From Clytia hemisphaerica (Eukaryota): a stretch of DNA of 64,000 nt. The stretch is from positions 3,356,497 through 3,420,496 of the forward strand of contig NW_027103286.1 in assembly GCF_902728285.1 (NCBI RefSeq), read 5' to 3'. Shown one piece after another: positions 28,003 to 55,130 of this stretch (position 1 is the stretch's first letter; each line of letters starts with the position of its first letter). Below the pieces are notes generated by a model. That model was not told where the DNA came from and ran no database searches. It saw only the letters and a list, made by a program, of their open reading frames with translations. The position numbers and the translations under genes were made by a program.

Positions 28003-30080
28003 ATGCCTGATAACATCGATCCTCTGAATCTCTTCAGAAAATCAAGTCTTAATATAGCTCATTTAAACGTGAATGGCCTTAGGTCGAAGCTTTATTTCTT
28101 AAAACTTCTCCTTCACCAAGAAAAATTTGATATTCGATGTCTGAATGAGACTAAAATTGACTCGACAATCACTGATAGTGAAGTCTCTATACCTGGGTAT
28201 TTACCCTGTAGGCTAGACCGCGAACATTCTTTCACGATGATTGATCCCAATTTTTCAAATAGCCCTCACGCTAAAGATTGTTCAATTGCTAATATTGGAA
28301 TAAGTGACCATTCAATTGTTTTTCAAAGAAGAGAGAAACCAATATCAATAGACCAAGGACCATAACCGCCAGGTCCTTTAAAAACTTCAACCAAGAGGCT
28401 TTTCTCGAAGACCTAGGGAATCTCGACTGGTCTGACATGCTCAACTCTACTAATGTAGACGAGGTGGCTGATATCTTTAACACCAATGTGCTAGATGTAC
28501 TTGACCGTTATGCTCCTATGGTTTAGAGAAGGATAAGTCATGATAGCCCTCCATGGGTCAACGAGGTACTACTTAATGTTGAAATTCTTAGCCGATCTCA
28601 ATCAGGTTTCCGAAACAAGTATTCAACTGATACAGCAGTTATTTGTGTGTCAGACTTTATATTAGAAGAGCTTGGGAAAGGGAAGTATGTTGGGACTGTA
28701 TTAGTAGATCTCAAGAAGGTCTTTGACACAGTAGATCATAAAATTCTTTTAAAGAAATTATTCTGCTATGGATTTAGGGACTCCTCATTCTCCTGGTTTG
28801 AATCTTATCTGTCAGACCGTCTTCAATGTACACTCCTAGGAGATACTTGCTCGGACATGATGAACGAATGCGCATACGGGGTTCCACAAGGATCGGTCCT
28901 CGGACCATTGTTATTTCTCCTTTATATAAACGATATTGGTCAAAGTATTCGACCTTCTGTGTTCCACTATCTTTACGCAGACGATACCATCATTGCTGTC
29001 AGTTCTGACTGCCCCGTGAGGCTTAGAAAAGATCTATCTGGCCAACTTTCTGAAGTCGGACATTGGTTCAGCCAAAATAAACTCACGGTAAACACGGGCA
29101 AAACCGAAGTCATATATTTTGGAAGAGCAAACAAACTGAAGGAATGCAAGAGGTTGGTCCCTATCCAATTTCAAGGCGACACTCTTGAATGCAAGGAGAA
29201 AATGAAATATCTCGGTGTCATCTTTGATGAAAACCTAAAATGGGATGCCCAGGCAATAGTGCTCGCCAGAAAGCCTATCTCAAACTAAACAAAAGGCATC
29301 TCTAGCTTTCTTGAAGATCACATGAAAAAAATGCTTTTAAATGCTCTTGTTATGCCACACATTACATATTGTTCCAATTCTTGGAGCACTATGTCAAAGG
29401 CAAACCACAACAAGTTTGATTCAGTCCTGAGCAACATCTCTAAAACCATGCCCATCAATAAGACACAAGTATGCAAGGACGTGAAGGTCGAACCGACATC
29501 GACCACCTTGTCAGGGGAGACTTTTGAAACTAAAACGACCAACATCCAAGACCATGCTCGTCTCGACATTGCTGCTAGGGGATTTTGGATTCCTGGCCAG
29601 AAGGCATTCTTCGACGTAAGGGTTTCAACCCAATCGCCAAAAAGTTCAGGAATTCCACTATCTCCAAAGCATGCAATGCAAACGAAAGGGATAAAAAGAA
29701 CATTTATAATTCAAGAATCATGAAAGTTGAGCAACGTCTCTAAAACCGTGCCCATCAACAAGACATTTGATCAGATTGTCGAATACAATAAAACACTGAT
29801 GATGTTCAAAGGGATGCGCAACATTGCGCCAAAATATTTGTGTGATCGGGTAAAGCCTGCTAGCGAGCGACATGAACGCCGCACTCGCTTTGCAAGAGAG
29901 AATAAAGTCTTTGTCCCTCTTTCCAAAAACACTTTTGCTAGTCGAACGTTCATTACCTCAACCACACATCTGTGGAACAATCAACCTTTAGAAATAAAAC
30001 AATGTGAATCCCTTTTATCGTTTAACACTATTTTTATTAGGGGGGTGTTTTCCACAAGCCTAGCACTCTTTTGCTAATAA
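28003..30080 (+). mobile_element. Decayed CR1/L2-like LINE (EN fragment 28003-28365, RT fragment 28647-29288, C-terminal region 29322-30077), with internal deletions and a short internal duplication.
   Basis: EN: LNIAHLNVNGLRSKL...IRCLNETK. RT: GTVLVDLKKVFDTVDH, AYGVPQGSVLGPLLFLLYIND, YLYADDTII. C-terminus: LNALVMPHITYCSNSWS. A duplicated block LSNISKTMPINKTQ (29440) / LSNVSKTVPINKTF (29730). Confidence 0.8.
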
Positions 30081-31653: not shown

Positions 31654-34600
31654 ATGCAGAGAATATTTTTGTTAGTGCTGGTCGTTGGATTGGCAGCTTG
31701 CCATCGAAGGCATAAAGGTAAGGAATTTTGAATGATTAGTATTTTTGAGCACTGTACTATGCAATTTGTTTTTAAGGAAACACCCACTTTGAAAGAAACA
31801 TAATCGGGTGCAAGAATTAGACAAAAGTAAGGGTAAGACATCACTTCCTGGACTAAATATTCACATTCCATAGACTTTGTCGGGACATTTCCGCTGTTTT
31901 TTTTAAGATAACCGGCCGAAAATTGTAAAGGGTTTTTTCCAGATTTTCTTTATCAGATTGGATGATGCTCGCCGGATATTTAGTCTTTTTTTCGCTGAAG
32001 AATAGCAGTGGAATTTTAGTCCGGAAAGTGAATGACAAGTGAATAACAATTTCGTTTTATAAAAAAATTATTTTCCTTCATTAGGGGGCAAAGAGAGATG
32101 GAGAGAGACAAATGAACGCTTATCATTCCAACTTCCAAACGGTAATGACTTAAATTTCATGAAATATTTTGATCAAAATTTAAAAACGAAGTACTGGAAA
32201 ATAAATTTTCCATCTGTTAGGTCGATTTCTAGCGTTTTCGAGCACTTTCTGAAAGTAACTTTTTCATTTAATCGAGTATAACTTTTGATCTAATGAATCG
32301 GAATTTTAAGATTTCGAGAAAATTAGTCTCAAAGAGAGGCGTACCCCCCGGGGGGGGGGGGGCACTCGATCTGAAATCGACCATACGTTCGGCCCAAAAT
32401 TTGGCTTCTAAAATCGGACCCTTACAGTGCAGTGAATTTCCATGAAAAAATCATACCCTTTCAGTGCACTTTTTAAAAATTTCTCGCCCGTAAGGGCGAA
32501 AATTTTTGCAATTTTCCAAGAAAATGTGGAAATTCTCCTCCAAAATTGACCAATTTTGTGATAATTTTACCAAAAAATTGGCCTTTTACCAAAATTTCCT
32601 ACCCTTACAGTGCAGTTCAGTGCAGTCTTGTAATTTCATACCCTTACAGTGCACTAGCTGAACTATGAAAAACCTACCCTTAAGGGCCGAACGTCTGGTA
32701 GGTCATTTACCTTGAGTGCCCCCCCCCCCGGGCGTACCCGCTACTTTTTCCTAAAGTCAAAGTTTCATCGATTACAGGATATTTGTTGAATCTCGTAAAT
32801 CAAGACAAATTACTATATAGATAAAATTAATCTTCCCTTACAGAATGTAAAATAGCTATCCATACCAGCGATGAAACATGTCAAAAGGATAGACTGACCG
32901 ATATTGCGAGGGCTCGATATTGGTACATACTTTCAAATGAAAACACCAACATTGATTTCCCTTTGGCTCATGAAATCCCATGGTTGGCCCATAACTTAAC
33001 GGCGGTTAATTACTATTACGCATTGGATCCATTCGAATCGCGATACATGGTACTTCTCAGCACCTGGATTTCCGCTATTATCACCACAATTACGCCAGCC
33101 ATAACCAAGGCTTTCGCAGGTGTCTCTTTCGAGTCCAACCAAGAGTATGTTGCGTGTTATGGTGCTTTCCAGAAGGCCATACAGGTACCAGGCCTAAAAC
33201 TTCTTACAAACGTAGTACATGAAGCAAAGGACTAAGGTCGTTTAGAATTCATGTAATACAGAAATATGGATGTTATATGATAATACAATACTTGTTAAGG
33301 GATATAATATTAGTTTGTATACAATTGACTATAATTTGTATACCATCATTTTTTTGCTTATTTTCTAAAATGTCTGAATTAGTCGTAGCATAGAGGTCAA
33401 TAGACCTGCGAAATATATTGCTATAAAATAAAATGCTAGACTAAGGATAATCAGGACTGGATAATATGAAGTTATGTATGATTTATAATGACAGTTTATT
33501 ATGAAGCTTAACCCTATTAGCCCCAAGCTTTTTTGACTTTTGTATCCCCAGGGGGGGGGGTAGAATCTACCACCGTCGATTATTTTCGATCTAGAAGAGC
33601 TATGGCCATGAAATTTGGTACAGATGTTCTCCATCATGATACAATTTTCCAGGAAGAAAAAAAAATTTGATTAAGTCATTCAAAAACTGATGACGTCATC
33701 ACAAAATTTCAACCTGTCGGAAAAAAGCCCAAATATATGGTTTACAAAAATGTATATTACAGTCGAACCAATAAAGATATTTCAATTATGTTTGAAGATT
33801 CTGAAAGATAAAAGACTGTTCTTTAACATAATTGCCGGTTTCGCAAATTCCATGAAGAGTTTTTCTTAAAATCTATGCTGAAGATGAGTAAAATTTTCAA
33901 AATTTGATGACGTCATAAATGATGACGTCAGCATTTTCAAAAATTTTCTTTTAATTTTTTAAATTTGTATTATCAATGCCTATCACGTGTCAAAATTTGA
34001 AAATGATTGAATAAATAGTTTAGAAGTTATCAGCACTTTAAAATTTTGAGTTTTAAGCGATTTAAGCTGGGTTTTATGTCATGTTTCACAATAAAGTCAT
34101 AAAACCTGATCTGGACAACCTATGACCCTAAAATTATGCACAAGTACTCGTAATAAGATTTTATTAAAAGTCAGAAAGTTTCAAATCGTTTGAAAAATTT
34201 TTCTCCGAGATATAAACAAAAGAACTCCAGCGTGGTAGATTCTACCCCCCCCTGGGGCTAATAGGGTTAAGAAGACTCCACTTTGGAATTTGTTTATGGA
34301 ATCCCATTCTCAGTAAAAAAAGATTCCTTTCACAGTATAAGACCACGTTCACACGCTACGTTCCGTTTCGTTCCAAAACGAAACGATTCCGAAACACTGT
34401 GTGAACGTCAAAATTGGAAACGTCAAAAAAGCAGACGTTACAAAGCAAAACAGATCGAAACGGTTTCGCTCCGCTATTTTCATTGGAACGGAACTGCTCC
34501 GTTTTCTTGCTCCGAAACGTTCCGAAATGAGTATGAGCACTTCCTATCCGTAACAATTACCCAACAAATACCACACCGGAGCGATACGAAAGCGTAACGT

Positions 34601-37600
34601 CTGAACATGGTCTTAGATTTAATAAAAACTTCTGTATTTTCAGGCGCTTCAAGCCCCGCAATACTTTGGCAATCCTGCAGAGTATCCCGACTTTACGGAT
34701 CACATCACCAATGGTTATTACCTGGAAGACGATGCGTTTGTTCAACGAAGACTTGCGGGACAATGTCCTTTCCTCATTCAAAAAGTCATCACTGAGGGTA
34801 AAAAACATCGCACATACGTTTGACTCTTGCTAATTCGAACTATAGAAATAATTTTTAACTGTTTTCCTCTTAATCGGATTATAGAAAGATTCGAATAATA
34901 TAAGATCGAATTAAAGAGAGCCGGCACTGCAGTGAAAGATATCCGAAAGGGTCCCAAAAAAGGAAACATCTGACGAAAATTGAACACAAAATTTCATCTT
35001 TTCACATCACCATTTCTTTTGTTCTCTCTGATTTTCATTTTTCAAATTTCCTGATTCATTATCCTCATTTATTGACAGGTGAGAGAGGGTTCAAGCTGGA
35101 CGATTTGATGCCTATGTTGAACCAAGACTTTTTTGAGACGTTCGAGATGAAATATTCCGATGAAATGGTCACCATGGAAGAGGTATTTAATAGACTAGTT
35201 TATAATCCTCGTAAGACAGTGAATATGGGTAGTGTATGATAATAGGATGGTTGTTAAGGGGTAACATTAGTTTTTATAAAGTACTATTATAGACTAAAAT
35301 AGACCTTATCGGAGTTTTCTATTTTTCTAAAAAAGCGAGGAATTCCTAAGAGATTTCTATTGTAATACACTTGAAACAATCCCACAATGCATCGCTTTTT
35401 CAGAAAAATCAAAAACTCCGATAAGGTCTATTTGTCCCTTCTACTATCTTTTGGTGATTTTCTACAGTGTCCGAATTAGTTTTCTCCAGTCGTTTGGTAC
35501 CTTCAATCATACATCAGAGTCTTCATGTAGCTCAAATTTCTTTAAAGTTTAAATACATTTTCCGAGCCTTCAGTTAAAGTGAAGTACTCTCTGAACTAGT
35601 CTGATTCGCAGACCTAAACAAACCACAGATGTGAATACCAGCAGCCTTTATCTGTTCTACATAACAGTTTTGCGTACCCTGCATGTGTTTGGGTTCTATT
35701 AGACTGGCGCGCCAGTCGGGCTGGAACGGTATCACACGGGAGAAGTGAGCGCAGGAGTTAGGTAAGTGTAGGAAGAAATTTTGTCGGCGGCAAGGGCTGA
35801 AAGCTGTTAATCAGCAGCCTCTCAGCAACTTTTACTTGTTCTCCTACGCAGCTCCTATTTCAGCAAACGCCGCCGCCTTTATGTTCCCACTCTCTGACAT
35901 GATTAATCAACAGACTAGTTTGCTAGTCTAGGGTTCTAGAAAAGGAGCTATATGGTTCACTAAAGTTCATATCTTAAAGGATCTTCCTTTCTGTTTCAGG
36001 CCATCAATCATCACCGTCTGTTCGTCCTCAATTTACCGAACATGAAGGACATCCAGAATGCACCGGACGCTCACGGTGATCTGTACACCGACCGTAAACT
36101 CTCTCCTCTCACTTCACCGATCTCATTCTTTCTGTTGGGAGATGATGGTTTGTTGAAACTGGTGGCCATCCAAAGATATCCCAAATCATGTAAGTAGACC
36201 TTTTCTTTTAGCTGAGCGAGACCAATCTTTTCTTTTCACCCTCTAAATTAACAGCTATTCACTTCCTTTTTAACGTTGTCGTTAAGCATCAACGTCTTTG
36301 AAGAAAATTGAAAATATCAGTACTTCAAATTCCTTATCGTTCCAGCTTCTGAAGTGTACACACCATCAAGTGAAAAGAACATCTGGTCGTTGGTCAAAGG
36401 AGAAGCTGAGCTCGCATCTGACATGTACTGTCAATCAAAAATTCACTTAGGAGGCGTTCATTTCGTGTCCACCATCTATTGTTTGTCCTTTAGACGACAT
36501 TTAAGCACCAAACACCCTCTCTACGATTTCTTTAAATACCATTGCGAAGGGACTGTCCCTCATATCACCACAGTCTTCGGGACTTTGACCACCCCCAATA
36601 GTTTGGGTAGCAAGCTTTACGGAATGGGAAGTGAAGGACTCGTCAAATTAGCCAAACAGAGTTATGATGAGAGAAATTATGAACACTCCACCTTCGACTT
36701 CTTCATTAGGGTATGTATTTTTTTCTACTTACTTTGGAGTCTATATGACACACAGGAACACTACTTTGTTCGAGTCACGGAAACTTTTAGATAGGGAACA
36801 AAGTTTAATAGGCATTGATTGTTAACTGAAGGGACAAGAAAACTTGTTCGAGTGAAGGAGACATTCGAGTTGTACAGGTGAGAGTTAAAAAGACTCGATT
36901 CTGTATACGTAAACTTTATTTTTAGGAAAGTCTCGAGGTGTAGTTTTTACCTTTATAGCGGTAATCGAAAAGAGGGGTAAATCACCGCACTCCATAGCAT
37001 AGTGAGCTCATTGTGGATATATAGATATGGTTAACCCTAGAATATGCTATCGTCTAAGACAAATCACCATCTAAGAAATAAGCCCAAAGCTGAAGAAAAT
37101 TCGCAAACAGGCTTTTTTGCTGAAAAGAGTTTACAACTGGTAGAGTTTGTCAGTCTTCGAAACTCTCCCGCCGATTTTTTTCTGTATACCGCCATAACGC
37201 CAAACCGCCCTATTTTCCCGCTTTTACTATCACTGTAGACGATAACATCGTCTAGGTTAACCCTCGCCAACCTTCTTTTTGTTTTACCAGGGTCAAGGTT
37301 TAGACGATACTCGAATCAAGTATTACCCTTTCCGTGAAGACGCCATTACATTGATGGGAGAGTTCAACATCTTCATTGAAAATCTTCTGAGGCGTTATTA
37401 TGGATCAAATTCTCATCGCGTCCGCGCGGACAAAGAATTGCAATCATGGGTGAACGAATTGTCCATTGATGGGAAAATTCAACCTGATGGCGGAAAAGGA
37501 AAGGTGAGAGAGTGAAGTCATTTGAAATTTATCCCTAGTTTTTGACGTCTAAGAATTAATTAGTCACAGAAGTGAACAATGAATCTGTCAATTGTTTTTA

Positions 37601-38786
37601 ACTTTGGACTACATCACAGAAAAATAGGGAACTTTACCGAGAAAACTTAATTACTACTTACCACAAGTCCTGAAAATTGTTCTTTCGATTCAACGCTGGA
37701 TGGTTTACCAGCAAATCAACTTGTGATCTCTAAAGACGAAAATTTATCTAATTTATCTACCTTTATCTAATTCCCTTTTTAGGTCATTGCTTTCCCTTCA
37801 TCTTTCCGTTGGCGAAGTCAGTTAAAGACTTTCTTGCAACGTTTCATGTGGATGAACATTTTTCACACGTCAGCAAATTATTACACACACCGAGATTTCC
37901 TACCAGCTTCTCCAAGTAAATTTTACGAACTGAACAATGGAACACAGCTCCCTTATCTTCAAGCACTCTCTGGAAAAGCATACAATGTTGTAAGTACCTT
38001 TTGTTGTAGTTAATCTAAATGATAAACTTCTGGGCAACCATTTCTTTGGGATATTTGTAATTACAACTTTCAGTCCTTTCTGCTACTAAAATTTGAGAAA
38101 AGAAACAACACAATTTTAATGATTTCGAAATTCAAACTCTGAGTGCCATAGTCGTTTATAATTCATCTAATACAGTAATATGTGTCTTACATGATAATTA
38201 CGATAATTGTTCCTGGATAAAACCGGTATCAGTTTGTCTTAACGACTGCAATTTGTTATTTTTTGCTTATTTCTCTTTACTATGTCTGAATTAGTCATCT
38301 AGCATACTACATTATAAGTGCCCAACTACTCTGTACCAGAAAGTAACGGGGTGGTACAGTCACTTTCGGTCGGGGTTGTGGACGGCGAAATATGTCGTTT
38401 TTATGAAATTTGTCGTTCTTTTTGTCTATTTTTAGTAATGCAGGATTCTTTAGATAAACCCCTCCACTCACGTTTATCATTTCTACGGAATTTTGAAATT
38501 AGTCCGTAGATATCCGGTCTGTATTTAAACAACTACGATTTTTTTCTTATAGGAATATATGAGATTCGAAGGAATGTTGAACAATTTCCGAGTGAACAGA
38601 ATTTTCTCATACTGGAAAGACATCACAAACCCGACATACCGACGAATTGTGCGCAAAGCTTTTTATCGTTTGAACACCATCGTCCAAAAGAAGTTAGAAA
38701 CAAGAAATGCTGAACGTAAAGCCAAAAATCAATTGGGTTATCAAATCATGGAACCAAAATGGCTGACGAATAGTATTCATATTTAA
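31654..38786 (+). CDS. Lipoxygenase gene A: nine exons, 623 aa, with a signal-peptide-like first exon, no recognisable PLAT domain and all iron-ligand motifs present.
   Basis: Exons 31654-31717, 32844-33184, 34644-34797, 35079-35182, 36000-36189, 36346-36710, 37291-37503, 37783-37989, 38553-38786. All junctions are GT-AG and phase-consistent; 1872 nt = 624 codons. LOX motifs: DDAFVQRRLAGQCPFLIQKV (DxxF..QRLAGxNP); SPISFFLLGDDGLLKLVAIQ; IHLGGVH (His-x4-His); FHTSANY (His-x3-Asn); ELQSWVNEL; C-terminal ...LTNSIHI with the terminal Ile iron ligand. Exon 1 MQRIFLLVLVVGLAACHRRHK is hydrophobic and signal-like. Confidence 0.85.
32335..32750. mobile_element. Palindromic MITE in LOX-A intron 1. Its TIRs contain C/G homopolymer runs (gcgtaccccccgggggggggggggcactcga...acgttcggccc) and the internal motif cccttacagtgcag is repeated.
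   Basis: Left 32339-32395 versus the reverse complement of right 32690-32748 (gggccgaacgtctggtaggtcatttaccttgagtgcccccccccccgggcgtacccgc). Confidence 0.65.
33512..34281. mobile_element. MITE in LOX-A intron 2 with ~45-bp TIRs containing a G10-11 run (cttaaccctattagcccca...ggggggggggtagaatctaccac).
   Basis: 33508-33570 versus the reverse complement of 34228-34281 (gtggtagattctaccccccccctggggctaatagggttaag). Confidence 0.65.
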
Positions 38787-39699
38787 AATATATCTAAAAT
38801 ATTTTTATAAATCTTTATAATCTTTATAGAAATGCTTACCCGGCAGCAAATCTTTGTCTTTAGTTTTGTGTAATTTCTCATTTTCTCATTTTTTTATTCT
38901 TGTTATTTTTCCTAAATACTTCATCTGAAAAAAATAGAAAGAAATAAAACGTAAGTTAACTACATCAGGTGTAAACAATATTTTGACTGACTCGAAAGCC
39001 CATACCGTCGACCCTGTGTATATCATACCCCCAACCCTCTGTGTGTTACCTATCAAGGAAGAATTTTTCACCAAAAATAATTTGCTCTTTTGAGCTTTTG
39101 AAACATAAAATAGGCGTTATTTGAAAAATATCATTTATTTTGTTGAGGTTGCAGTCTCAAACCTAATAATCAGTTTAGTCCTCATTTTGCAACATGCAGA
39201 TAAGACCTGACCTTCTCAAAAATTACAGTGCTCTGAACTATCTTTTCAACGGTATATTGTGTGTTAAATTTTTCTCGCAACCATTAAATTTTGGGAATTT
39301 TAGCAAATTCGTGAAAATCACGAAAAATTCTGGCTGCTAAAATTTCTGACATTAAAGCAATAAAATTAACTGTTAAGAATGAATATGTTAAATCGAGGAA
39401 TGCATAGGAGAACGAAATCACATCACAATCAAAATGAAAAGCGGATCGGATCGAAAGCGGAACAATTTTCAGGAAATGAGTAGTCTAGCAAGCTAGACGA
39501 CTAATTCAGACATATTAGAAATAAAGCAAAAAAGTAAATTTTAGTCGTCTATAAACCTTTGTGCACTAACTCCAAACAATAAAAAAAGTGTCAATATCGC
39601 AATTAAAATTTTTTCCTGCTCAAAAAAAATTCTTGAAAATAAAATGTGTGTGGATTTGTCTGTTAAAAATGTTTCATTTGAGTTGATTTTATTTTGAGA

Positions 39700-39940
39700 G
39701 TTTCAGGAGTTTGTTATTGCTTAATAAATTTTTTTCTCGCTACGCAAGTTTCTGCGTAGCTAGGCCCGGTATCTATAAGACTGGAACACCGGATTCTTCC
39801 AGTCGTTTATACAAACTAAATCCCGTATTATTATTTGTGTTTATTATTAGTATTACATGCATTATAAACGACTCCAGTCTAGGAAATGAGGAAAAAATTA
39901 AATTTTCGGACATGAAACTAAACTTCGCAAATCAGTAAAG
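39700..39940. repeat. Cluster of short palindromes in the LOX-A/LOX-B intergenic region.
   Basis: cgctacgcaagtttctgcgtagc (39738-39760); gactggaacaccggattcttccagtcgtttata ... tataaacgactccagtc. Confidence 0.5.
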
Positions 39941-40414
39941 AAATATCATAGATGTCAAATTCGATATTAATTGGCTTTTCGTCGGCGCGTTGATATATTT
40001 GAAACTTTTTTTGGACAACCTCTAAACGGGAATAAGGGTCCATGTTTACGATTTTTGAAAGACCTGTTTTCTACAACAAGGTAGTTTGAAAATTGATGCA
40101 AAGTTTATCTTGCTTATCATTTCGATCCAGAGAGGATTCTCATAGTAAGAGACCTGCCATGCTTATGGCCATCTTTTCAAAAGTTCCTTCAATATTTATC
40201 GTTTACCTAAGCACTAATCGGTCGATTTGGCTCAATTTCGTCATTATTTCAAGATTTGAGTAATCAAAATAATTTCAATGCCGAGTGAACTTTGGAAAGA
40301 TTAAGTTCGCACATACGGTCGTTTTTAAATCGATTGCCCCCGGGAATTTCGATGCTTTCAGACTTTTTGTTCTTTAAAAAGGTTCAAAATAGATATACAT
40401 TTTAAGAATTGAGT

Positions 40415-40680
40415 TTAGAGCCCCGAAGGGGCTAGAGATGAGTCTTCAACCTTTCTCAAGCAAGAAAAAGTGAAGCCTTAAGATTTGCGCCGCATTTAGA
40501 ATGACGGATTAAATCTAGCACTTTCTTTGTTATCACGTGGCATATTCTGGCGATATGTTTTACTTTCAATCTAGCGTTTGTGTGGAAACTACGCGGGTCA
40601 CGCATCTAGGATGGGAAATAAGTGGCTTCATTTCCCATCCAGGAGTCCCGTGTCTAGCCCTTGGGGCTTGGAAATCAATG
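40415..40680. repeat. Repeat with palindromic ends (agccccgaaggggct / agcccttggggct); its core is shared with 49840-49910.
   Basis: ttttactttcaatctagcgtttgtgtggaaactacgcgggtcacgcatctaggatgggaaataagtggctt at 40548- versus ttttactttcaatttggcgtttacgtgaaaaccacgcgggtcacgcattttggacgggaaataagtggcttt at 49840-. Confidence 0.55.
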
Positions 40681-41072
40681 ATTTTAATAGTATATGAGTT
40701 TCACCAATACATGTAAACTCGAATGCAGAAGCTTATTTCATTATTCTTTGGTAGAGCACTCACTAAAGTACCAAGGGCCATCAAAAAAATCAAAAAATGG
40801 TTCAAATGGCTCTGGGTGGGAGATTGCAAGCCAATACACCCGCTTTATCGCAACGTTAGCTTGCAACACACTTTGGAGTGTAAAAAAAGAGGTTTAGTCT
40901 TAATTTTCTAATATCAATTACGCATTAACTTGAAATCGAAAATGGGATTTCGGAATTAATATTTGTATCTTAGGTTAAATAAAGAAAATTATAAGATTAT
41001 TAAACGATTATTAAATAAGCGATAAATATGGACAAAAAAATCAAAATAAATGATAGCTTGGTTGAAACATTT

Positions 41073-44000
41073 TCAAATATGGACGCTATTTGTCAGCCAT
41101 TTTGGTTCCATGATTTGATAACCCAATTGATTTTTGGCTTTACGTTCAGCATTTCTTGTTTCTAGCTTCTTTTGGACGATGGTGTTCAAGCGATAAAAAG
41201 CTTTGCGCACAATTCGTCGGTATGTCGGGTTTGTGATATCTTTCCAGTATGAGAAAATCCTGTTCACTCGGAAATTGGCCAGCAAACCTCTGAACATCAT
41301 ATATTGCTGAAAAGGAATTTAATTTTCAAATTAATTATATAGATATGGTATTAACAAAACCCATGCGGCCAAGCGACCAAGCCCTGTAAACGGTCTAAGT
41401 TATAACCTAGGATTTGTAGATATAAAACACCCTATTGGTTTACTCAACTTTCAGCTGATAGTTTGAAAGTCTTCAAATGAAAACCACATAATGAGGCCCC
41501 CCCAGCGGTTGGCGTGATGGCGTGATGGAGGGTTTTTCGTGGCGTGATGGCGTGAAATTTTGAAAAAAAACGGCGTGATGGCGTGAAAATGAAGTGCCGG
41601 CGTGATCGTGAAATCGAGATTTTTTAGGCGTGATGGCGTGAAATTTTCAGTTCAGCGTGATCGTGAAATTATATTTATTAGTTGAATTGTATTTCTATGT
41701 CCATTTTAGCCAATTTAGAGGGTTTAAATTTCAAAATTTTCTTGGTCGGCCCTAACTATGGTGGGGCCTCCTATAGATTAGATTTCATTTTAAAACATAA
41801 AAGAAACGGTGCAAACAGTTCTATTCATCTGTCATTTATCCTTGTAACTTCTGATTGTTTTTAGCAGTTGCTAGCTAGTCTTCAAAATAAAGTCGAATGC
41901 TATGAGAGGGTCGAAAATTGAAATTTTTTCCCGTCAGCGAAAACCATGGTTGCGCTTTCTCCGTAACTAACATTTCCCTCTCTTTCTTAGATGCTTATTC
42001 TTAGATGCATCCAAGACATCAGGTCCTTTATTTCAGGAAAATATACATTTGTAGCAAAGCCATAAACAGAAAGAAGCAACAGGTTTATTATGAGGGTGTA
42101 ACTTAAGCAGATTGATCAAAAGAATCTGTGATGTTTAAACCATATTTTGGAAAAAAAGAGAGTAAATGAGGGCGATTTTAGCCATACTAAATTAAAAATT
42201 TCTCCTGTCGGTGCAAACCATGGTTGCGCCTCCTCGTTCCCCTTTTGAAAACTTTTCACGCTAATTCACAATTAATGTACTTTTAAAAGATTTCCATTAT
42301 TTTTACATGAGTTATTTTTCAAATTGAATTGAAATGGATCCCAAAATAGCACTTTGAACCCTTCAAAATTCAAAAATTTTCTCCGTTACCCAACCATGGT
42401 GGGCTTTGTCAATTTACTCAAACCGGTGCCCTTTGATGTGACCAGTTGTCCAACAATGTTTTATATGCATAAGTCAAGATTACGTCATTTTTCCTATCGG
42501 AAACACCCGAAAAAACTGGAATTTACCCCTGTGTATTACTAAAAATAGAAAAACAGATGTCAAATTTCTTCCAGATTTTTCGGGTGTTTCCGATAGGAAA
42601 AATGATATAATCTTGACTTGCTTACGCGTATGAGAATGCCGATGAAAAACTGATTAACGACCAAGCACATACCTATTTGTGTTTATATATAACAAAAATT
42701 ATGAGCATGAAAATAAATTTTCTAGGCGTAATGGCGTGAAATCGAAAGAAATTGGCGTGATCGTGAAAATCAAATTTTTCAGGCGTGATGGCGTGAAATC
42801 GAAAAAAAATTGGCGTGATGGCGTGAATTTTGGGTCCGCTGGGGGGGCCTCCATAATATACTCACAACATTGTAAAGTTTCCCAGTAAGAGCTTTCAATA
42901 AGGGCAGGTCTGTTCCATCTAGATTTTGATAAAGTCTAGTGGGTGAAGTTGGCATGAAATCTCTGTAATCAGGATAATTTGCTGAAGTGTGGAACAAGTT
43001 AATCCACAGAAAGCGTTTTAAGAACGTCCTCAACTGATCGCATGTTTCGAACTTTGCTGGAAAACCTTTCATCTAAATGAAATAACAATAGAGATATTGG
43101 CTGGGAAGAAGAAGAAGAAAATATAAGCGCGAAAACAAATTTCAGGTGTCGGAAGTGTATTCAAAGAGATACATGTAAGGAAGAAGGTCAAAAATTGAAA
43201 CTCTTCATTTTTAGCAAAACATTGTCTTGAGTTTCGAGTTTGGTAATACACTCTCAAAGCCAACGCAGACCTGTTACGCACTGGGAAAAAAACCCAAAAA
43301 TTAAACCCTGGTAAACAAATAATATCCAGTTGAAAAGCTTTAATTTGGAAAATGAGACATGGGTTTGGTGACATTTAAACACATTCCACACCTTTCCTCG
43401 CCCAGCATCAGGTTGAACCGTTCCTTCAGGCGACAACTCGTTAGCCCATGATTGTAATTCAGCGTCCCTGTGAATTCTTCCTCTTCTGTAATAAGTCTTG
43501 ATGATGTCATCGATGAAAGTCTCGTATTCTTTCATAATTTCTTTGACGTCATCACGGAAAGGGTAATATTTAATGTCCTCGTCATCCAAACCGTTACCCT
43601 GGAAACGCAAAATATTGGATTCTTTAAAACAAGATTCTAAGGGATAGTTTCAAAGTCGGTAAGAAATATTATGTACGCATTCTAGATCATATTATGAGTA
43701 AATTTACAATTTTGCATAAGCCATTTAGTTTAAAAAACTACCCCAGGTCAAATCTTAATAAAGGTAAAACGCCTTTACGCATTGTTCTTACCTCAATGAA
43801 ATCTTCATAAGTGTTGCTTTCATAATCTCGTTCTGCAAAAGCTTTTTGCGACAAATCAAGAAAACCTTGATTCCCGGTTCCGTAGATGACACTACCCGCA
43901 GCATTGGGTGTGGTCAAAGTCTCAAAGACTGTGGTGATATGAGGGACAGTCCCTTCACAATGGTGCTTAAAGAAATCATAGAGGGGGTGCTTGGTGCTCA

Positions 44001-46545
44001 AATGACGTCTAAAGGACAAACAGTAGATGGTGGACACAAAATGGACTTCTCCGAGATGTATTTTAGCTTGACAATAAAGGTCTGATGCCATCTCAGCTTC
44101 TCCTTTAGCTAAAAGCCAATTGGAACTTTCTGGTGTATCAACTTCGGATGCTGGAAAAAAAGAAAAGTTTTAAATACTAGCTTTCAGTTTATTATCTCAG
44201 TGCTTTGTAAAGTGATTGTGCGGAAAGAAATCTTTTTTTGTTTTATAGAATTACAATCGAGAAAAGATGTTTTCGTCAGTAGTTACTTGGATCAAGTTTC
44301 CTCTTCCACTCAAATCCCATACCTAATCAAAGATAGAGTTCAAACATACTTTGAACAGGATTTCTTTGGATCGCAACTACGTGTAAAAGTCCGTCATCTC
44401 CCAACACAAAGAACGATATCGGTGACTTGACGTCAGCAAGTTTGCGATCTTGCAATAGCGGTGCGAATACGTCGGGTACGTTTTTAATGCCCACCATTTC
44501 AGGGATGTGAAGTACAAACAATCGGCCGTCCTCAATCGCCTATAAATAAAAAATAAATACAAAGTTTTGAAAAGTTGAATCTTTCTCTATTTGATTTAAG
44601 GCAGCACAATAATGACTGGGTTCTAAGAGCCCCCCGAACGGTTTGTGTGATGACGTGATAAGGACTTTTTTGTAGCGTGATTACGTGATTTGGATTTTTT
44701 TTTGCGTGATTGCGTGATCAGAGGTCAAAACGTGATTACACGAAACGTAAAAATTTTTTGAGCCATGATACGTGATTTGGACTTTTTGGACTTCGTGATC
44801 ATGATTGAAGACAAACAATTGTGTCATATCGTGATCAGAGTTACCGCTAGGGGGAGGGGGGGGGCTGTTCTAAATTTATACTCGTCGCGAAAGCAATAGT
44901 TTAATAAAAAAGTATTTCTGGAAGAATTAAATTGTAATTACCTGTTCAATAGACACAGATTCTGTAGCAGAATATTTCATTTCAAAGTCTTCAAAGAATT
45001 TGGTGTTGACTAAAGGTTTCAAATCGTCCACGTGGTAGCCTTTGCCATCTGTAAGAAGAAATATTTTTCTGTTATTGAATTTAAAAAGAAGATATGGAGG
45101 AAGGTTAGCATATGGTAGTGTTCACTTCTTTAAAACTTCGTTGGGGAAAATTTTCGTCGGGGAAAAATTCGTCACTTGCTGGTAGTTGGTAAACGCATTA
45201 AGGCCGGGGAAAATTTTCGTCAGGGAAAATATTCGTCACTTATCCAAAATTTCGTCACTTTTTCCCGACGAAGTTTTCCCTGATAAGGGGCATACGAAAT
45301 AAGAAAAAAAAGAAAAATCATCTCATGAAGATTTCTTCAAGGTACCTTCATCATCAACGACTTTCTTCAAGAAGTAGGGACATTGACCAGTCAATCTTCG
45401 TTGAGTAAACGCCTCGTCAGTTTGCCAGTGACCCGTCAAAACATGGTCTGTGATTGTAGGGAATTGCGATGGGTTGGCAAAATATTGTGGTGCTTTTGTC
45501 GCCTACACCAAAAGAAGAAGTGAATAATTTATTTTTAAACATGAAATGTCGGAGAGAATAAAACTTCCAGAAATGTTCTAGAAAACTCTCAATGTGATTG
45601 AAAAGATAAGTAATATCGGGACACAACAAAATCATTTGTTCAAGTTGTGCAAATAGAAAAGCGCACAGATGAAGAGGACAATTAAGAAAAAGATTTTCTC
45701 ACCTGAACAGATTGCTGCCATGCTTTATAAGCAATCGCATATTCTTGCGGGCTTTCGAAAGAAGTCGTGTTAAAAGCAGCAGTTAAACCAGGGAAGACGG
45801 TGTTTAGCAATATGTTTGTCCACGTTTGAAGAAGCACTAAATGTCTCGATTCAAATGGATCCAAGGCGTAATAATATTTGGTTTCAGATAGATTCTGCGC
45901 TAACCAGGGAATCGTTGAAGCCAAAGGAAAATCAATGTTGGTGTTTTCATCGGAAATTTTGTACCAATATCGAGCTCTTGCGATATCGGTCAGTCGCTCT
46001 TTCTGACAGTTACGACGTGCACCGACTTTGACAGGACATTCTGATAAAAAAACGAGAAATGTTTAAAAAAATAACGACACTGAATTTTGACTCTTGGGAA
46101 AAATAAGATATAAAAAATATGTTTGACCCTTAACGCGTGAACCTTACTTTTGCCCTATTCCCTGTGTTAAGGCGAAAATTGGGCGGATTACGTTAGAAAC
46201 TTCAAATCACTCACCTCTTGGTATTGAAGTGCGACGAGAAGACCTGTGGGATCTTTTATTCTTCCAGCGTCCCAACACCATCTTTGTTAATTTTGCCAAA
46301 TCTTCGTCTAATTCTGAAATAGAAACAAAATTATAATCTTTAATACAAGTTGGCTGATAGTTTGAAAATGTTCCACATACTAATGATTAAAAGAGTTAAC
46401 TATCGTCACGCATGAAAATATTTCTCCTTTTTTAGGCCTGGGGAAAGACGTAAATTAAACAACACTTACTCGTTTCATCCTGGTGAAGTGTGGAATGACA
46501 TTGTGCTACCACCACACATGCAAGTAGCAGGGTTACAACCTTCAT
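41073..46545 (-). CDS. Lipoxygenase gene B: nine exons, 624 aa; a paralogue of LOX-A in convergent orientation, with a signal-peptide-like first exon.
   Basis: Exons (minus strand) 46470-46545 (ATG 46545), 45703-46040, 45346-45502, 44942-45048, 44350-44539, 43792-44150, 43392-43598, 42866-43072, 41073-41306. All junctions are GT-AG and phase-consistent; 1875 nt = 625 codons. Motifs: DEAFTQRRLTGQCPYF; WLLAKGEAEMASDLYCQAKIHLGEVHFVSTIY (His-x4-His); FHTSANY; ELQSWANEL; C-terminal ...LTNSVHI. Confidence 0.85.
41494..42850. mobile_element. Foldback-type element in the last intron of LOX-B. Its inverted termini (gaggcccccccagcgg / ccgctgggggggcctc) are followed by subterminal tandem 'ggcgtgatggcgtgaaat' repeats.
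   Basis: 41494-41680: gaggcccccccagcggttggcgtgatggcgtgatgg...ggcgtgatggcgtgaaatttt.... 42715-42850: ...ggcgtgatggcgtgaaatcgaaaaaaaattggcgtgatggcgtgaattttgggtccgctgggggggcctcc. The internal motif 'aaattttctcc.tc..aaaccatggttgcgc.tcctc' recurs at 41895, 42195 and 42370 (and at 3120). Confidence 0.6.
42480..42610. repeat. Hairpin (inverted repeat of ~45 bp with a ~40-bp loop).
   Basis: caagtcaagattacgtcatttttcctatcggaaacacccgaaaaa ... tttttcgggtgtttccgataggaaaaatgatataatcttgacttg. Confidence 0.7.
44625..44870. mobile_element. MITE related to the 41494-42850 element (gagccccccgaacgg...cgtgat-type repeats...ccgctagggggaggggggggg), in a LOX-B intron.
   Basis: Termini gagccccccgaacggtttgtgtgatgacgtgat and gttaccgctagggggaggggggggg; internal (c)gtgat(t/c)(a/g)cgtgat tandem motifs. 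Confidence 0.5.
45120..45290. repeat. Palindromic repeat (cgtcggggaaaaattcgtcac / gtgacgaaatttt..cccgacgaag) in a LOX-B intron.
   Basis: Inverted repeats of 'ttcgtcggggaaaa(a)ttcgtcac' on both sides of ~45210. Confidence 0.5.
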
Positions 46546-48362: not shown

Positions 48363-49690
48363 CTAAATATAACTATCAATAACATTTTTCCATTCCACAC
48401 GATTCAAAGCTTTCCCATACCACTCACATTTCAATATACCAACTTTATTCAAACTTTTGTAAACTCCACGCCCATACGTGAATTCAGGGGCCCCGCGTGG
48501 GCGCCTTTCGCTAACCCAGCATGTCAGCATCTTACGGGGCAAACGATCAGAGGGCATTCGGGTTACGTGCCCTAACCAGCGTAGTTGGCGACGTGTAACA
48601 TATACATCAATAGAGAGCAAACCAGTGCGCTCAAGCAATTCAGCCGTCGAAATTCGGTGGGATCTCACATGATTTAAGTTAACACGGCATATGGTGCGGA
48701 CACAACGAGCATGAAAAACTCTCAACTTTCTATAAACAATTTCAGTAAGGCACCAGTGCTCAGAGCCATATAACAAAATCGCCAGAACAATGCCTTCGTA
48801 GACAGATTTTTTTGCTGCGAACGAAACATTAGTAGAACGGAATAAACAATTTCTCAAAGCTCCAAACGCACTGCTGGCTGCTTTTATTCTCGACTCGACG
48901 TCAAGGGTATCTTTACAATCACGCGATAGGATTGACCCCAGGTAACAAAAACGATCGACGATCGGCATATGGGATGCATCATCGATTTTGACATTACCAA
49001 GATTCGTATTATCGAAAGACAGGGGATCGGTATAGGTTTGGTTCGGAGCAGAAACAAACAAAATTTCAGATTTAGAGCTTTTCTCTTCGGTACCAACATG
49101 GATTTCTAGACCGAATCTTAGAAAATGCTTGACTAGTGGTGGAAGGTAGGTTTCGACAGAGCTTCTTGATGTGAATAGAACTCCGGTATCGTCAGCATAC
49201 TCAGAGTCCGGTAACGAAAACTGTTCACATTTTTTAGTTGAAGGTCGTCTACCGGTTAGGATATCGTCAAACTTGGTGTGAAAGATACAGACTTCTCGTG
49301 TGTGAGTGGTTCTCCAAGATATCATTACAGCAGCAAGGTAGAAAATGAAAAGGAGTGGACCCAGTATATCACCCTGTTTGACACCAATTATACTTTCGAT
49401 CCTTTTAGTGATGTCATTTACAACAAACTTAACTTCCACATTTGCGTGAAGTGATTTAAGCAGACGTACAAGTTTATCAGGGACACCAAAAATATATAAC
49501 ACTTCCCAGAGAAGCTCGCGCGGTACTCGATCAAAGGCTTTGACCAGGTCGAGAAATAATATCCAAGTCTCTTGGCCATGTTCCCTGCGCTTTTTCATTG
49601 CCATTTTTACTGTGAAGATCCCGTCAACACATCCACGCCCAGGACGAAAGCCGCACTGGGGTTCATGGTCAAGGATCTGCTACCACCTCA
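48363..49690 (-). mobile_element. 5'-truncated non-LTR retrotransposon fragment (RT domain, RTE/L2-like).
   Basis: 413-aa ORF 48363..49604 with FLDLVKAFDRVPRELL, GVKQGDILGPLLFIFYL, EYADDTGVLF. An upstream extension QILDHEPQCGFRPGRGCVDGIFTV (to ~49690) ends abruptly, as expected for 5' truncation. Confidence 0.85.
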
Positions 49691-50395: not shown

Positions 50396-51729
50396 TCAGG
50401 AGATACCAAGATATTCTCTGAGACATTTCGGTAGATTATCATTCAGAAAGGTGTCACTGAAACTTCTCAAGCAAGCCATTCGTGCGATATGTTTCAAGGA
50501 GATTTTCAAATGATTATATGGTGGAGTTACTTTCGCAAATTGTAGCACACTGTTTGGATTTCGGAATGCTATCTCCTGCATGTGTAAATTGAATGAAAAG
50601 TCACCAATCCATCTCTTGAAATCATGAATTATACTTTGTTCTCCCGATCCAAAATCATACAAATAAATTGACGCGAATCGTTTGTTTCCTCCTGGAGTGA
50701 CTTGAAGGCCAGTGATGAAGTACTGCCCAAAACATTCCACAACTTTGTTGAAAAAGATATGTTTTCCTTGGTAAAGCAAATTGATTATTTTCAATGGGAT
50801 AACCTCATTTTTGCTGTTGACTTGAAAGAATTTTAAGCTTTTTACCCTCGTTTTGATATCGCTCAAGTGCATAAAGAATACAGATTTTGACAAATGGTAC
50901 AACATTTGATCCTCGAAAGTCTCTTTTTCATCATCAATAGTCACTCGTTCAGCCAGAACTTGATTTCCTGAAAAATCGAAACCATATAAGAACGGACCAT
51001 ATAATCATAGTCGTGGATAAAAATTCTCTCCGAACTAATATCTATGGACAGCTGGAGATCTATGTGGGATGTGTCGAATGTACCGGGTTCGAAACTAAGC
51101 TCAGTACAATTACTCAGCACAACACGCTTGAAATGTGATAGCTTTGTCTTGTCCATTAAGACAATATCAGCCACAAAATTAAAACCACCGGTAGAAACAA
51201 GCACCATTAAGGCGTAACCATATTCTTTGGTTTTTCCCTGCCAAAAACATTGGATGCACTGCAAAGCTTTATATGGCTCCAGTTCAATGACACAATCCTC
51301 CGTTTCTTGAAAAGTGGTTGATACAATACTTCCTGGAGGAGCACCTAAAAGGTGTTTCATGCTTCCACTATGTAATATCAAAGGTTGGCTCCCATCTTCC
51401 AAAGTCGAAGGCTTCTCAAACACAAACCAACGATTAAGTGAAGCGTTATAGGGCCAATCACATTCTAAAAAATTAGAATCGTTCCACGTTGGTAATTTAA
51501 TCAAACTCATTTGTAATTTAGCTGTTTCCTCATTGAATGAATAAACAGCGATGACATGATCATCTGTGCTGTCCCATGGCCTGGTATATGAAGTATAATA
51601 TCTTCCAGAGCTGTCAAAGCCACACACAGTTCGGTATACGGGCGGGTCAAGTCCAGTCCACGTTTCTTTTGTCTCTACACATTCGGTGAGATGAGGTGGT
51701 AAGAACACTTGCCGTGGGTAAGCCAACAT
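50396..51729 (-). pseudogene. SOCS-box family copy 1, split into two overlapping ORFs by a frameshift near 50941 and ~13 bp shorter than copies 2 and 3; divergent (~60% aa identity) apart from its first ~25 codons.
   Basis: ORFs 50941..51729 (MLAYPRQVFLPPHLTECVETKE...) and 50396..50944 (...NHLKISLKHIARMACLRSFSDTFLNDNLPKCLREYLGIS) are collinear with the 448-aa copies but in different frames. Confidence 0.55.
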
Positions 51730-53783: not shown

Positions 53784-55130
53784 TCAAGCGAGTCCAAGAT
53801 ATTTACTGAGACATTTCGGTAGATTGTCCTTCAAGAATTCGTCATGAAAACTTTTCAAGCAAGCCATTCGTGCCATATGTTTCAAGGACATGTTTAAATG
53901 ATCAAAAGGAGAATTCACTTTTACGAAGCGTAGATAAGGGCTTGATAAATACATCAAACTTGCTGTTGGGTCAAAAAGCGCTATTTCCGCCATATGCCAA
54001 TTAATTGAAAAACCGTAAATTTCTCTTCTACAATCGTACCGGATCATCAGTTCTCCTGATTTGAAGTCGTACAAACAAACCGAATGAAATGGTTGGGAGC
54101 CTGCTTCTGAAGTGACTTGAAGGCCTTCGACAAAAAATTGATCAAAACATCCAACGACTTTGTGTAAAATAATATCGTTTCGTCCATGACACAAATTAAT
54201 TCTTTTCAATGGGATGACCTCATTTTTATTGTCGACTTGAAAGACCTTTATGCTTTTTGCCTTCGTGTCAACGTTCTCCAAAAAAACATAGAAGATCGAG
54301 TTTGACAAATGATATAAATCATTAAAATTCTGAACACCTTCCCTTTCGGAGATTGTGACTTCATAATCCATAAGGCGATTTCCCTCAAAATCAAAACCAT
54401 ATACCATACCATATTCATAATTATGAAGGTAAATTCTCTTAGAATTCATATCTAGCGATACACCAGAATTATGGAACGCAAACGTTCTAGGTTCGAAATC
54501 CATTTCAGTGCAACTGCTCAACACAACACGTTGGAAATGTGAAAGTCTTTTTTCGCCTATTAAAACGATGTCAGCCACAAAATTGTAACCACCAGGAGAT
54601 ACAAGCACCATCAAGACGTAACCATATTCTTTGGTTTTTTCCTGCCAAACACTATGGATGTAATGAAAAGCTTTATATGGCTCCAGTTCAATGACACAAT
54701 CCTCCGTTTCTTGAAAAGTGGTCGATACAATACTTCCTGGATAAGCATATAAAAGGTGTTTCAAGCTTCCACTGTGTAATATCAAAGGCTGGCTCCCATC
54801 TTCCAAAGTCGAAGGCTTCTCAAACACAAACCAACGATTAAACAAAGGATCATACGGAAAGTCATATTCATTATAGCGCAAGTTCCATGATGGTAATTGA
54901 ATTAAACTCACTTGTAGTTTATCTGTTTCCTCATTGAATGAATAGACGCTTATGATATTGTCACCTGCTTTATCCTCAGCTCCGCAATATACGGTGTAAT
55001 ATTTCCCAGAGCTGTCGAAGCCACTCATACTTATTTGCTGGGGGCGGTCAAGACCAGCCCACATTTCTTTTGTCTCAACACATTCGGTGAGATGAGGTGG
55101 TAAGAACGATTGACGTGGGTAAGCCAACAT
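53784..55130 (-). CDS. Intronless gene (copy 2 of a tandem triplet) for a 448-aa protein with a C-terminal SOCS-box-like motif and an uncharacterised ~400-aa N-terminal domain.
   Basis: Uninterrupted ORF with ATG at 55130. C-terminus ...SPFDHLNMSLKHMARMACLKSFHDEFLKDNLPKCLSKYLGLA resembles the SOCS-box consensus (SLqHLCR..I........LPLP..L..YL). Confidence 0.6.
   Translation of the reverse strand: MLAYPRQSFLPPHLTECVETKEMWAGLDRPQQISMSGFDSSGKYYTVYCGAEDKAGDNIISVYSFNEETDKLQVSLIQLPSWNLRYNEYDFPYDPLFNRWFVFEKPSTLEDGSQPLILHSGSLKHLLYAYPGSIVSTTFQETEDCVIELEPYKAFHYIHSVWQEKTKEYGYVLMVLVSPGGYNFVADIVLIGEKRLSHFQRVVLSSCTEMDFEPRTFAFHNSGVSLDMNSKRIYLHNYEYGMVYGFDFEGNRLMDYEVTISEREGVQNFNDLYHLSNSIFYVFLENVDTKAKSIKVFQVDNKNEVIPLKRINLCHGRNDIILHKVVGCFDQFFVEGLQVTSEAGSQPFHSVCLYDFKSGELMIRYDCRREIYGFSINWHMAEIALFDPTASLMYLSSPYLRFVKVNSPFDHLNMSLKHMARMACLKSFHDEFLKDNLPKCLSKYLGLA

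Follow-up and report, generated by a model that had tools for sequence, protein, structure and literature searches.

The DNA analysed here, a window of 64 kb from Clytia hemisphaerica with a G+C content of about 36%, carries two convergent lipoxygenase genes, here called LOX1 and LOX2, whose products are best explained as bacterial-type lipoxygenases that lack the PLAT domain, enter the secretory pathway and act outside the cytosol, a reading to which we give a probability of about two in three. The lipoxygenases of animals that have been characterised are cytosolic and dock onto membranes by means of a PLAT/C2-like domain, and we know of none among them that oxidises lipids outside the cytosol. 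The properties that define a canonical animal lipoxygenase (the PLAT domain, a cytosolic protein without signal peptide, and a position in the corresponding clade) all appear to be missing from LOX1 and LOX2. The evidence that carries this reading consists of the N-terminal region of both proteins, a set of features that would make sense in the lumen of the secretory pathway, and the relatives with which the two proteins group.

The two genes

When the stop-free segments of both strands were cross-aligned, nine colinear paralogous coding blocks appeared, on the + strand at 31.6-38.8 kb and on the − strand at 46.5-41.1 kb, and the exon boundaries were then set by reading the junctions. LOX1 runs from ATG to stop over 31654..38786 (+), with 10 coding exons and 642 amino acids (exons 1-5 at 31654-31717, 32085-32141, 32844-33184, 34644-34797 and 35079-35182; exons 6-10 at 36000-36189, 36346-36710, 37291-37503, 37783-37989 and 38553-38786), and LOX2 occupies 41073..46545 (−), with its ATG at 46545, its stop at 41073, 10 coding exons and 657 amino acids (exons 1-5 at 46545-46470, 46313-46215, 46040-45703, 45502-45346 and 45048-44942; exons 6-10 at 44539-44350, 44150-43792, 43598-43392, 43072-42866 and 41306-41073). 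The 18 introns, nine per gene, are all GT-AG, their phases are conserved between the genes, and the two proteins are 61% identical. From stop to stop there is an intergenic spacer of 2286 bp (38787..41072), which must contain both 3′ untranslated regions, and thus the convergent paralogues 2.3 kb apart described by a previous sequence-only reading of this DNA are confirmed. Its 9-exon models of 623 and 624 amino acids could also be rebuilt exactly, with the ATGs at 31654 and 46545, except that each of them skips one small exon.

The skipped exon is the second. In LOX1 (32085-32141, +) it measures 57 nucleotides, has phase 1-1, encodes GGKERWRETNERLSFQLPN, that is, a variable basic linker, and was located by tblastn with the transcript-derived protein P0001; in LOX2 (46313-46215, −) it measures 99 nucleotides, again with phase 1-1, and encodes LDEDLAKLTKMVLGRWKNKRSHRSSRRTSIPR, a peptide that is found in the RefSeq protein P0218 and in P0221, the protein of a de novo mRNA contig. 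As this exon is bounded by AG...GT in both genes and has phase 1 at both ends, the earlier models kept the frame in spite of its omission. The direct splicing of exon 1 to the exon that begins with (E/K)C, which those models implied, has to be abandoned: exon 1 terminates at a GTAAG donor, after 64 nucleotides in LOX1 and 76 in LOX2, and not directly after ...ACH or ...QCH, and it encodes the hydrophobic segment and a few polar residues. De novo contigs of mRNA size encode the exon-2 peptide, and no exon-skipped isoform of 623 or 624 amino acids was found among the recorded cluster members.

Translated from 10 exons, LOX1 matches RefSeq XP_066920200.1 ("uncharacterized protein") and LOX2 matches XP_066920211.1 (P0218; "polyunsaturated fatty acid 5-lipoxygenase-like"), each with 100% identity, and both accessions lie on one 3.97-Mb Clytia contig. 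In other words, the two genes are already in the public annotation, with automatic names only, and the novelty lies in how the clade to which they belong is read here. They are two intact, transcribed paralogous genes; that they might be pseudogenes was rejected, given the intact open reading frames (ORFs) and the conserved metal ligands. The nine spliceosomal introns of each gene and the location on a RefSeq chromosome-scale Clytia contig show that they are not encoded by a prokaryote, and bacterial contamination was rejected on the same grounds. Between the window and P0001, the LOX1 protein derived from transcripts, 14 residues differ, which is presumably allelic variation. A second copy of LOX2, 98.6% identical (RefSeq XP_066919919.1, P0002), is annotated on a different 3.47-Mb contig and could have arisen by recent segmental duplication or represent a haplotig; when P0002 was sought among the contigs by exact match, nothing was found.

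A bacterial-type helical segment in the place of PLAT

Neither protein has a PLAT domain, as the sequence-only reading had proposed, and where PLAT would be expected there is a helical segment of bacterial type (residues ~51-154). In the Pfam scan of LOX1 and LOX2 no PLAT was found, nor did the joined ORF segments from the 6.6 kb that precede LOX1 contain one, the only match there being a reverse transcriptase. A PLAT hidden Markov model (HMM), built for this purpose from 11 PLAT-bearing lipoxygenases, recovers the 4/4 controls that were held out (E 8e-41 to 2e-7), and gave no match when the whole window was scanned as 2836 six-frame ORF segments (best E ~1), or in 22 proteins of the family (best E = 13). 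Aligned with hhalign, the N-terminal region reaches a probability of 0.2% against the PLAT profile, and of 95.8% (E 7e-9, 96 columns) against the N-terminus of the nearest bacterial lipoxygenases, the match starting at their SLPQxD motif; several cnidarian members still retain the SLPQ spelling.

The predicted structure agrees with this. AlphaFold and Foldseek were run on P0001, which is near-identical to LOX1, and with 27 sequences the model attains a predicted local distance difference test score (pLDDT) of 90.4 and a predicted template modelling score (pTM) of 0.88, the pLDDT being 72.5 with 8 sequences only. It has helices at residues 51-67, 92-101, 103-130 and 139-154 and no β-sandwich, the N-terminus being all-helical, and residues 19-37, the linker encoded largely by exon 2, fall below a pLDDT of 50. 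The best among the Foldseek matches listed is the PLAT-less CspLOX2 of Cyanothece, with a target template modelling (TM) score of 0.78-0.80, as against 0.66-0.69 for PLAT-bearing lipoxygenases. Length on its own does not exclude the domain, because the signal peptide and the RLAG motif are some 145 residues apart and the PLAT-bearing lipoxygenases in the set are only 656-731 amino acids long; the argument that there was no room for PLAT is therefore lost, and the absence of the domain stands on the searches and on the fold.

It could still be supposed that the true start lies upstream, or that the N-terminus is an uncleaved signal anchor or some other signal, so that these would be ordinary lipoxygenases, cytosolic or anchored in a membrane. 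Annotation errors are conceivable, since the earlier models missed an exon. Against this, the transcript-derived and RefSeq proteins begin at the same ATGs as the models and show no upstream PLAT exons, the orthologues in at least nine cnidarian genera start alike, the 64 kb hold no PLAT-coding sequence, the LOX1 frame is closed by a stop 14 codons before its ATG, and the hydrophobic regions, of only 12-13 residues, are too short to span a membrane and are followed by small residues at −3/−1. Hidden upstream PLAT exons were rejected, and the alternative as a whole, already largely refuted, is one to which we attach very little probability.

Features that point to the secretory pathway

The N-termini were examined with a simple heuristic (n, h and c regions, an uncharged h-run, small residues at −3/−1, and hydropathy) in 21 members of the family, Sycon included. 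LOX1 begins with the predicted signal peptide MQRIFLLVLVVGLAAC (31654..31701, +), with an n-region of charge +1, an h-run of 13 residues, small residues at −3/−1 and a likely cleavage site AAC|H, and LOX2 with the predicted signal peptide MKVVTLLLACVVVAQC (46498..46545, −), likely to be cleaved at AQC|H; here the heuristic agrees, for both proteins, with what had been noticed about the first exon from the sequence. The same tripartite layout recurs in all 21 members, each with an uncharged h-run of 9-18 residues, small residues at −3/−1 and then polar sequence, the h-run typically starting within the first eight residues in cnidarian members and later in Sycon. Every member of the clade whose N-terminus can be trusted has a signal-peptide-like start, the bacterial relatives do not (N-terminal hydropathy of at most 1.5), and no further transmembrane-like segment was found by hydropathy in the 21 members. 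In the AlphaFold model the signal segment of LOX1 is a helix followed by a disordered linker. The linker of LOX2 (residues 26-58; 46313-46215, −) contains dibasic or furin-like sites, RWKNKR and RSSRR, and may be a propeptide; the equivalent linkers of the relatives are variable, basic or rich in His.

Three pairs of cysteines, which covary strictly among 116 lipoxygenases, point in the same direction. The first forms the predicted loop C42-x10-C53 of LOX1 (CKIAIHTSDETC; 32846..32881, +), which lies at the position of the bacterial N-terminal SLPQxD and at which the bacterial hhalign match begins, and its counterpart in LOX2 is, by alignment, CPVKVGARRNC (46006..46038, −). C42 and C53 are present in 20/20 cnidarian-type members and absent from every other lipoxygenase in the set; C349 and C370 are likewise present in all 20 cnidarian-type members, and in few other lipoxygenases of the set; and C195 and C332 occur together in 11/11 hydrozoan-type members, the rest of the family and the Sycon proteins having no such pair. 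To these can be added a putative N-glycosylation sequon, N91-L-T in LOX1 (32993..33001, +) and NLS in LOX2 (45894-45886, −), which is kept at that site in 14/20 clade members.

Some of the relatives carry, in addition, typically extracellular modules fused to the lipoxygenase domain: P0011 has TSP1 and FN2 (fibronectin type II) ahead of it, in P0016 of Montipora the RLAG motif is followed by an inserted FN2 domain, and P0026 of Exaiptasia has an EGF domain, all of them above the Pfam cut-offs, and P0017 of Nematostella gives a weak EMI match. Taking these features together, a cytosolic location of proteins of the LOX1/LOX2 type appears very unlikely.

The signal peptide, the cysteine pairs, the sequon and the module fusions do not, however, separate export from storage in the lumen. 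The proteins could enter the endoplasmic reticulum without being released, remaining in secretory granules, nematocysts or endolysosomal compartments and acting on the lipids there, and the signal-peptide, disulfide and sequon evidence would fit any luminal destination equally. The dibasic sites of the LOX2 linker (KNKR, SRR) resemble those at which propeptides are processed, and a Clytia cell-atlas preprint places several lipoxygenases, together with P450s resembling allene oxide synthase, in granular, secretory-like cells of the planula, the "putative eicosanocytes", whose markers overlap with the bulk RNA sequencing of theca-bearing tissues. Two considerations speak against retention, namely that a C-terminal retention signal is impossible, because the C-terminus must be a free Ile carboxylate, and that the FN2, TSP1 and EGF fusions of the relatives are of a matrix type and so point to the extracellular space. 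Luminal retention is an unlikely outcome in our estimate, if one that deserves to be kept in view beside the export of the proteins.

The catalytic domain

LOX1 and LOX2 are members of the lipoxygenase superfamily, and catalytic activity may be expected from their sequences. Pfam PF00305 (Lipoxygenase) matches with 74.1 bits in LOX1 and 70.4 in LOX2, against a cut-off of 23.6, and no further family was matched. The best sequence matches in the PDB are, in order, coral 11R-LOX (3vf1, 7e-20), 8R-LOX, human ALOX15B/ALOX5, the Cyanothece mini-LOX and PA-LOX, and all 50 of the Foldseek PDB matches listed for the predicted fold are lipoxygenases, with E about 1e-18 or lower. Aligned to the 3vf1 chain of coral 11R-LOX, residues H337, H342, H524 and N528 fall on ligand positions. 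H337 and H342, invariant or nearly so in the 116 lipoxygenases, belong to the first iron-ligand motif (HLGGVH and HLGEVH in the two proteins) and to the putative metal-site helix C332-x4-H337-x4-H342-x17-H360-x8-H369, which also holds C349 and C370 (36429..36545, +, in LOX1; 44073-43957, −, in LOX2). The HTSAN motif with H524 and N528 is at 37864..37878 (+), its LOX2 equivalent being at 42991-42977 (−), and the C-terminal Ile642 of LOX1 (38781..38783, +), like Ile657 of LOX2 (codon 41078-41076, −), would provide the fifth ligand with its carboxylate. The iron-ligand motifs claimed for both proteins (HLGxVH, HTSAN and the C-terminal Ile) are therefore all present.

The claim of a canonical substrate-channel motif, RLAGxNP, does not hold. 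The sequences are FVQRRLAGQCP in LOX1 (34737..34769, +) and FTQRRLTGQCP in LOX2 (45409-45377, −), with an additional R and with a Cys, C195 in LOX1, in the place of the canonical Asn of "NP". The complete lipoxygenase signature, quoted as His-x4-His-x4-His-x17-His-x8-His (PMC5712309), is not complete here either, its first His being Cys (C332) in all hydrozoan-type members, at a position that is not among the five ligand positions identified. If the family and Sycon are set aside, 94 lipoxygenases remain, of which 88 have N at position 195 and 74 have H at position 332.

These substitutions speak for the idea that the proteins, although secreted, are not classical dioxygenases but could work as eLOX3-like hydroperoxide isomerases, or could bind lipids and have weak oxygenase activity or none: in the hydrozoan type, Cys stands both for the Asn that is nearly universal in RLAGxNP and for the initial His of the signature of five, and the third Clytia paralogue, P0003, bears the automatic name "hydroperoxide isomerase ALOXE3-like". 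An automatic name, however, is no evidence, the fold is predicted with high confidence, and all five metal-ligand positions, of which 332 is not one, are conserved in 11/11 hydrozoan-type members, so that this possibility seems to us improbable, and a dioxygenase acting outside the cytosol is retained as the preferred reading.

With regard to the anthozoan-type members, P0013, P0015, P0016, P0019, P0020 and P0026 keep the canonical RLAGxNP and yet end in Thr or Ser (...NGIQT, ...NSVHT, ...NSIST), the terminal residue being Ile or Val in 76/94 of the other lipoxygenases in the set, and an Exaiptasia protein has Lys and Thr at two ligand positions.

A cnidarian-wide clade

A profile search run exhaustively over 1.84 billion representative proteins yielded 2488 lipoxygenase matches, more than were obtained by a word-indexed homologue search, which even with a profile gave only 7-8 relatives. 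The top tier, above 275 bits, in which the alignment of most full-length members begins at the Cys-loop and reaches the C-terminus, has named members in the hydrozoan genera Clytia, with three paralogues, and Hydra, the scyphozoan Sanderia, and the anthozoans Nematostella, Exaiptasia, Acropora, Montipora and Stylophora; the second consists of two proteins of the calcareous sponge Sycon ciliatum, and the third of bacterial lipoxygenases of Nitrospira, Pyrinomonadaceae and Pseudohongiellaceae. In a neighbour-joining tree of 116 lipoxygenases (510 columns, 100 bootstraps), the hydrozoan-type clade is recovered in 100 replicates, all the cnidarian members together with P0035, a eukaryotic-looking protein, in 83, these with Sycon in 62, and the cnidarian and Sycon proteins with one bacterial clade, separate from every other lipoxygenase sampled, the PLAT-bearing ones included, in 90. 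The two Clytia proteins do not fall within the clade of animal PLAT-lipoxygenases in this tree and, as far as sequence comparison can tell, belong to a cnidarian-wide clade that groups with sponge and bacterial enzymes.

A proposed mechanism and what weighs against it

If the above is accepted, the 16-residue signal peptide encoded by exon 1 would direct co-translational import into the endoplasmic reticulum and be cleaved after Cys16, leaving a variable, basic and disordered linker (the end of exon 1 and exon 2) at the front of the protein. In the lumen, up to three disulfides could form (C42-C53, C195-C332 and C349-C370) and Asn91 could be glycosylated, after which the enzyme would leave the cell or be kept in secretory granules, acting in either place, outside the cytosol, as a non-haem metal dioxygenase that adds O2 to polyunsaturated fatty acids, either free or esterified. 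The Ca2+/PLAT docking onto membranes that is proper to cytosolic animal lipoxygenases would not be used, and since PLAT is absent, access to the membrane and to the substrate would have to rely on the helical N-terminal segment, for which PA-LOX offers a precedent. Signal-peptide cleavage, disulfides, glycosylation, secretion, activity, substrate and role are all steps that we infer.

Several points weigh against this proposal: (i) the signal-peptide call depends on a simple heuristic; (ii) the neighbour-joining tree is a rough one, made with simple distances of which some are saturated, and says that the proteins lie outside the canonical animal clade rather than giving a resolved history; (iii) the hydrozoan members put Cys at two highly conserved residues (195 and 332), by which catalysis could be altered; (iv) and finally, neither the text nor the supplements of the Clytia atlas preprint identify its lipoxygenase genes, so no cell type can be tied to this locus.

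The surroundings of the genes

The last exons of the two genes form a high-identity tract, at 38554..38788 (+) in LOX1, in inverted repeat with 41305-41071 (−) of LOX2. They agree at 91.9% of their nucleotides, where the nine remaining exons reach 57-74%, the tract does not continue past the exon, and codons 11-74 contain 0 nonsynonymous and 6 synonymous differences, a pattern that is probably due to gene conversion between inverted terminal exons 2.3 kb apart. The introns had been described as packed with miniature inverted-repeat transposable elements (MITEs), which is an overstatement: three foldback, MITE-like elements were found within the window, at 42471-42619, 35297-35433 and 32331-32749, with arms of 51, 48 and 31 nucleotides that are 94%, 90% and 71% complementary, respectively. 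Repeats internal to the window cover some 18% of the locus, the paralogous exons included.

Other ORFs of the window were also noted. Upstream of LOX1, a reverse-transcriptase ORF (28647-29288, +; Pfam RVT_1, 96 bits) belongs to a retrotransposon without long terminal repeats, and two more ORFs, one upstream of LOX2 (48363-49604, −) and one farther off (5036-7453, −; 805 amino acids), were recognised as reverse transcriptases by the YADDT motif alone. An intronless ORF of ~448 amino acids is repeated in tandem in three copies, all on the − strand (50396-51729, 53784-55130 and 57718-59064), two of them intact and, by eye, closely similar, and the third split by a frameshift or stop. At 19797-23222 (+) there is an uninterrupted ORF of 1141 amino acids, rich in Q, T and P and with a repetitive N-terminus, that coincides with a G+C peak of 0.44 and an AT skew of 0.33, and the ORFs at 12127-12747 (+; 206 amino acids) and 14754-15218 (−; 154 amino acids) have signal-peptide-like hydrophobic starts (MKLVTICFLFLFIQLGEC... 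and MMKFVLFVLVLGLSRSFA..., respectively).

Possible meaning for the animal lipoxygenases

A broader proposition is that the Cnidaria, and probably the calcareous sponges, possess an ancient, animal-encoded lineage of bacterial-type lipoxygenases working outside the cytosol, which would be the first secreted lipoxygenases of animals; we put this forward tentatively, giving it somewhat less than an even chance. If it were true, such enzymes would act on extracellular or matrix-bound lipids, or on those of prey or microbes, for instance in the formation of the theca or matrix, in defence, or in external oxylipin signalling, and the lineage would have originated in a very early horizontal transfer from bacteria, or else in an ancestor older than the acquisition of PLAT that the bilaterians lost. 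Early-branching animals would then also oxidise lipids in extracellular or luminal space, a strategy known so far from PA-LOX, the enzyme of a bacterial pathogen, and from the fungal MnLOX. This would further supply a genetic handle on cnidarian oxylipins. The automatic names "5-lipoxygenase-like" and "ALOXE3-like" are misleading for the clade.

Comparison with known systems

The animal lipoxygenases already known, such as coral 8R-/11R-LOX and human ALOX5/ALOX15B, have the catalytic fold and the metal ligands in common with LOX1 and LOX2, and differ from them in having an N-terminal PLAT/C2-like domain and no signal peptide and in belonging to a separate, distant clade; the coral enzymes and ALOX5 are, moreover, regulated by Ca2+. 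Published accounts treat the N-terminal C2-like/PLAT domain as one that eukaryotic lipoxygenases have in common (PMC5437038, PMC7436259). No account of an animal lipoxygenase that is secreted or lacks PLAT, or of this clade, was found in the literature, within a coverage that is incomplete and does not amount to proof of absence.

Among the enzymes without PLAT, the Cyanothece sp. PCC 8801 CspLOX2 (PDB 5MED/5MEF/5MEG), which lacks the C2-like domain common to eukaryotic lipoxygenases (PMC5437038), is the one that LOX1 most resembles in structure among the matches listed, but it is prokaryotic, its deposited chain is of 569 amino acids, and the structurally aligned residues are only ~18% identical. 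By profile score, the non-animal relatives that come closest are the uncharacterised bacterial "SLPQxD...PNSTSV" lipoxygenases of the third tier (P0033-P0053; 158-215 bits), which share the homologous N-terminal helical region and the grouping in the tree given above; they differ in that they have few cysteines, no signal-peptide-like start and a terminal Val after STS, and the Clytia genes in their nine introns each.

The secretion of a lipoxygenase had been considered unusual, which is fair for animals and less so beyond them. The PA-LOX/LoxA of Pseudomonas aeruginosa (PDB 4G32, 5IR4; sequence match 4e-14) is, like LOX1 and LOX2, without PLAT, and provides a precedent for action outside the producing cell, as it is a secreted enzyme whose active site binds phospholipid and which oxidises the lipids of membranes (PMC5764228); it differs from LOX1 in being bacterial, in its poorer superposition (root-mean-square deviation of 10-12 Å, TM score 0.62-0.66) and in lying outside the nearest bacterial clade. 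The fungal MnLOX represented by Gaeumannomyces 13R-MnLOX and Magnaporthe MnLOX (PDB 5FNO, 5FX8) is very distant from LOX1 (E ~2e-4), uses Mn and is of a different lineage. These fungal enzymes are eukaryotic, lack PLAT and, carrying a signal peptide, are secreted as glycoproteins. Plastid targeting in heterokonts can involve a signal peptide. The brown algae Saccharina and Ectocarpus have prokaryote-like lipoxygenases, several of them with predicted signal peptides (PMC5712309), and these are, as in Clytia, eukaryotic genes of bacterial type, but not animal ones. LOX1 and LOX2, in short, bring the architecture of the bacterial mini-LOX into intron-rich animal genes.

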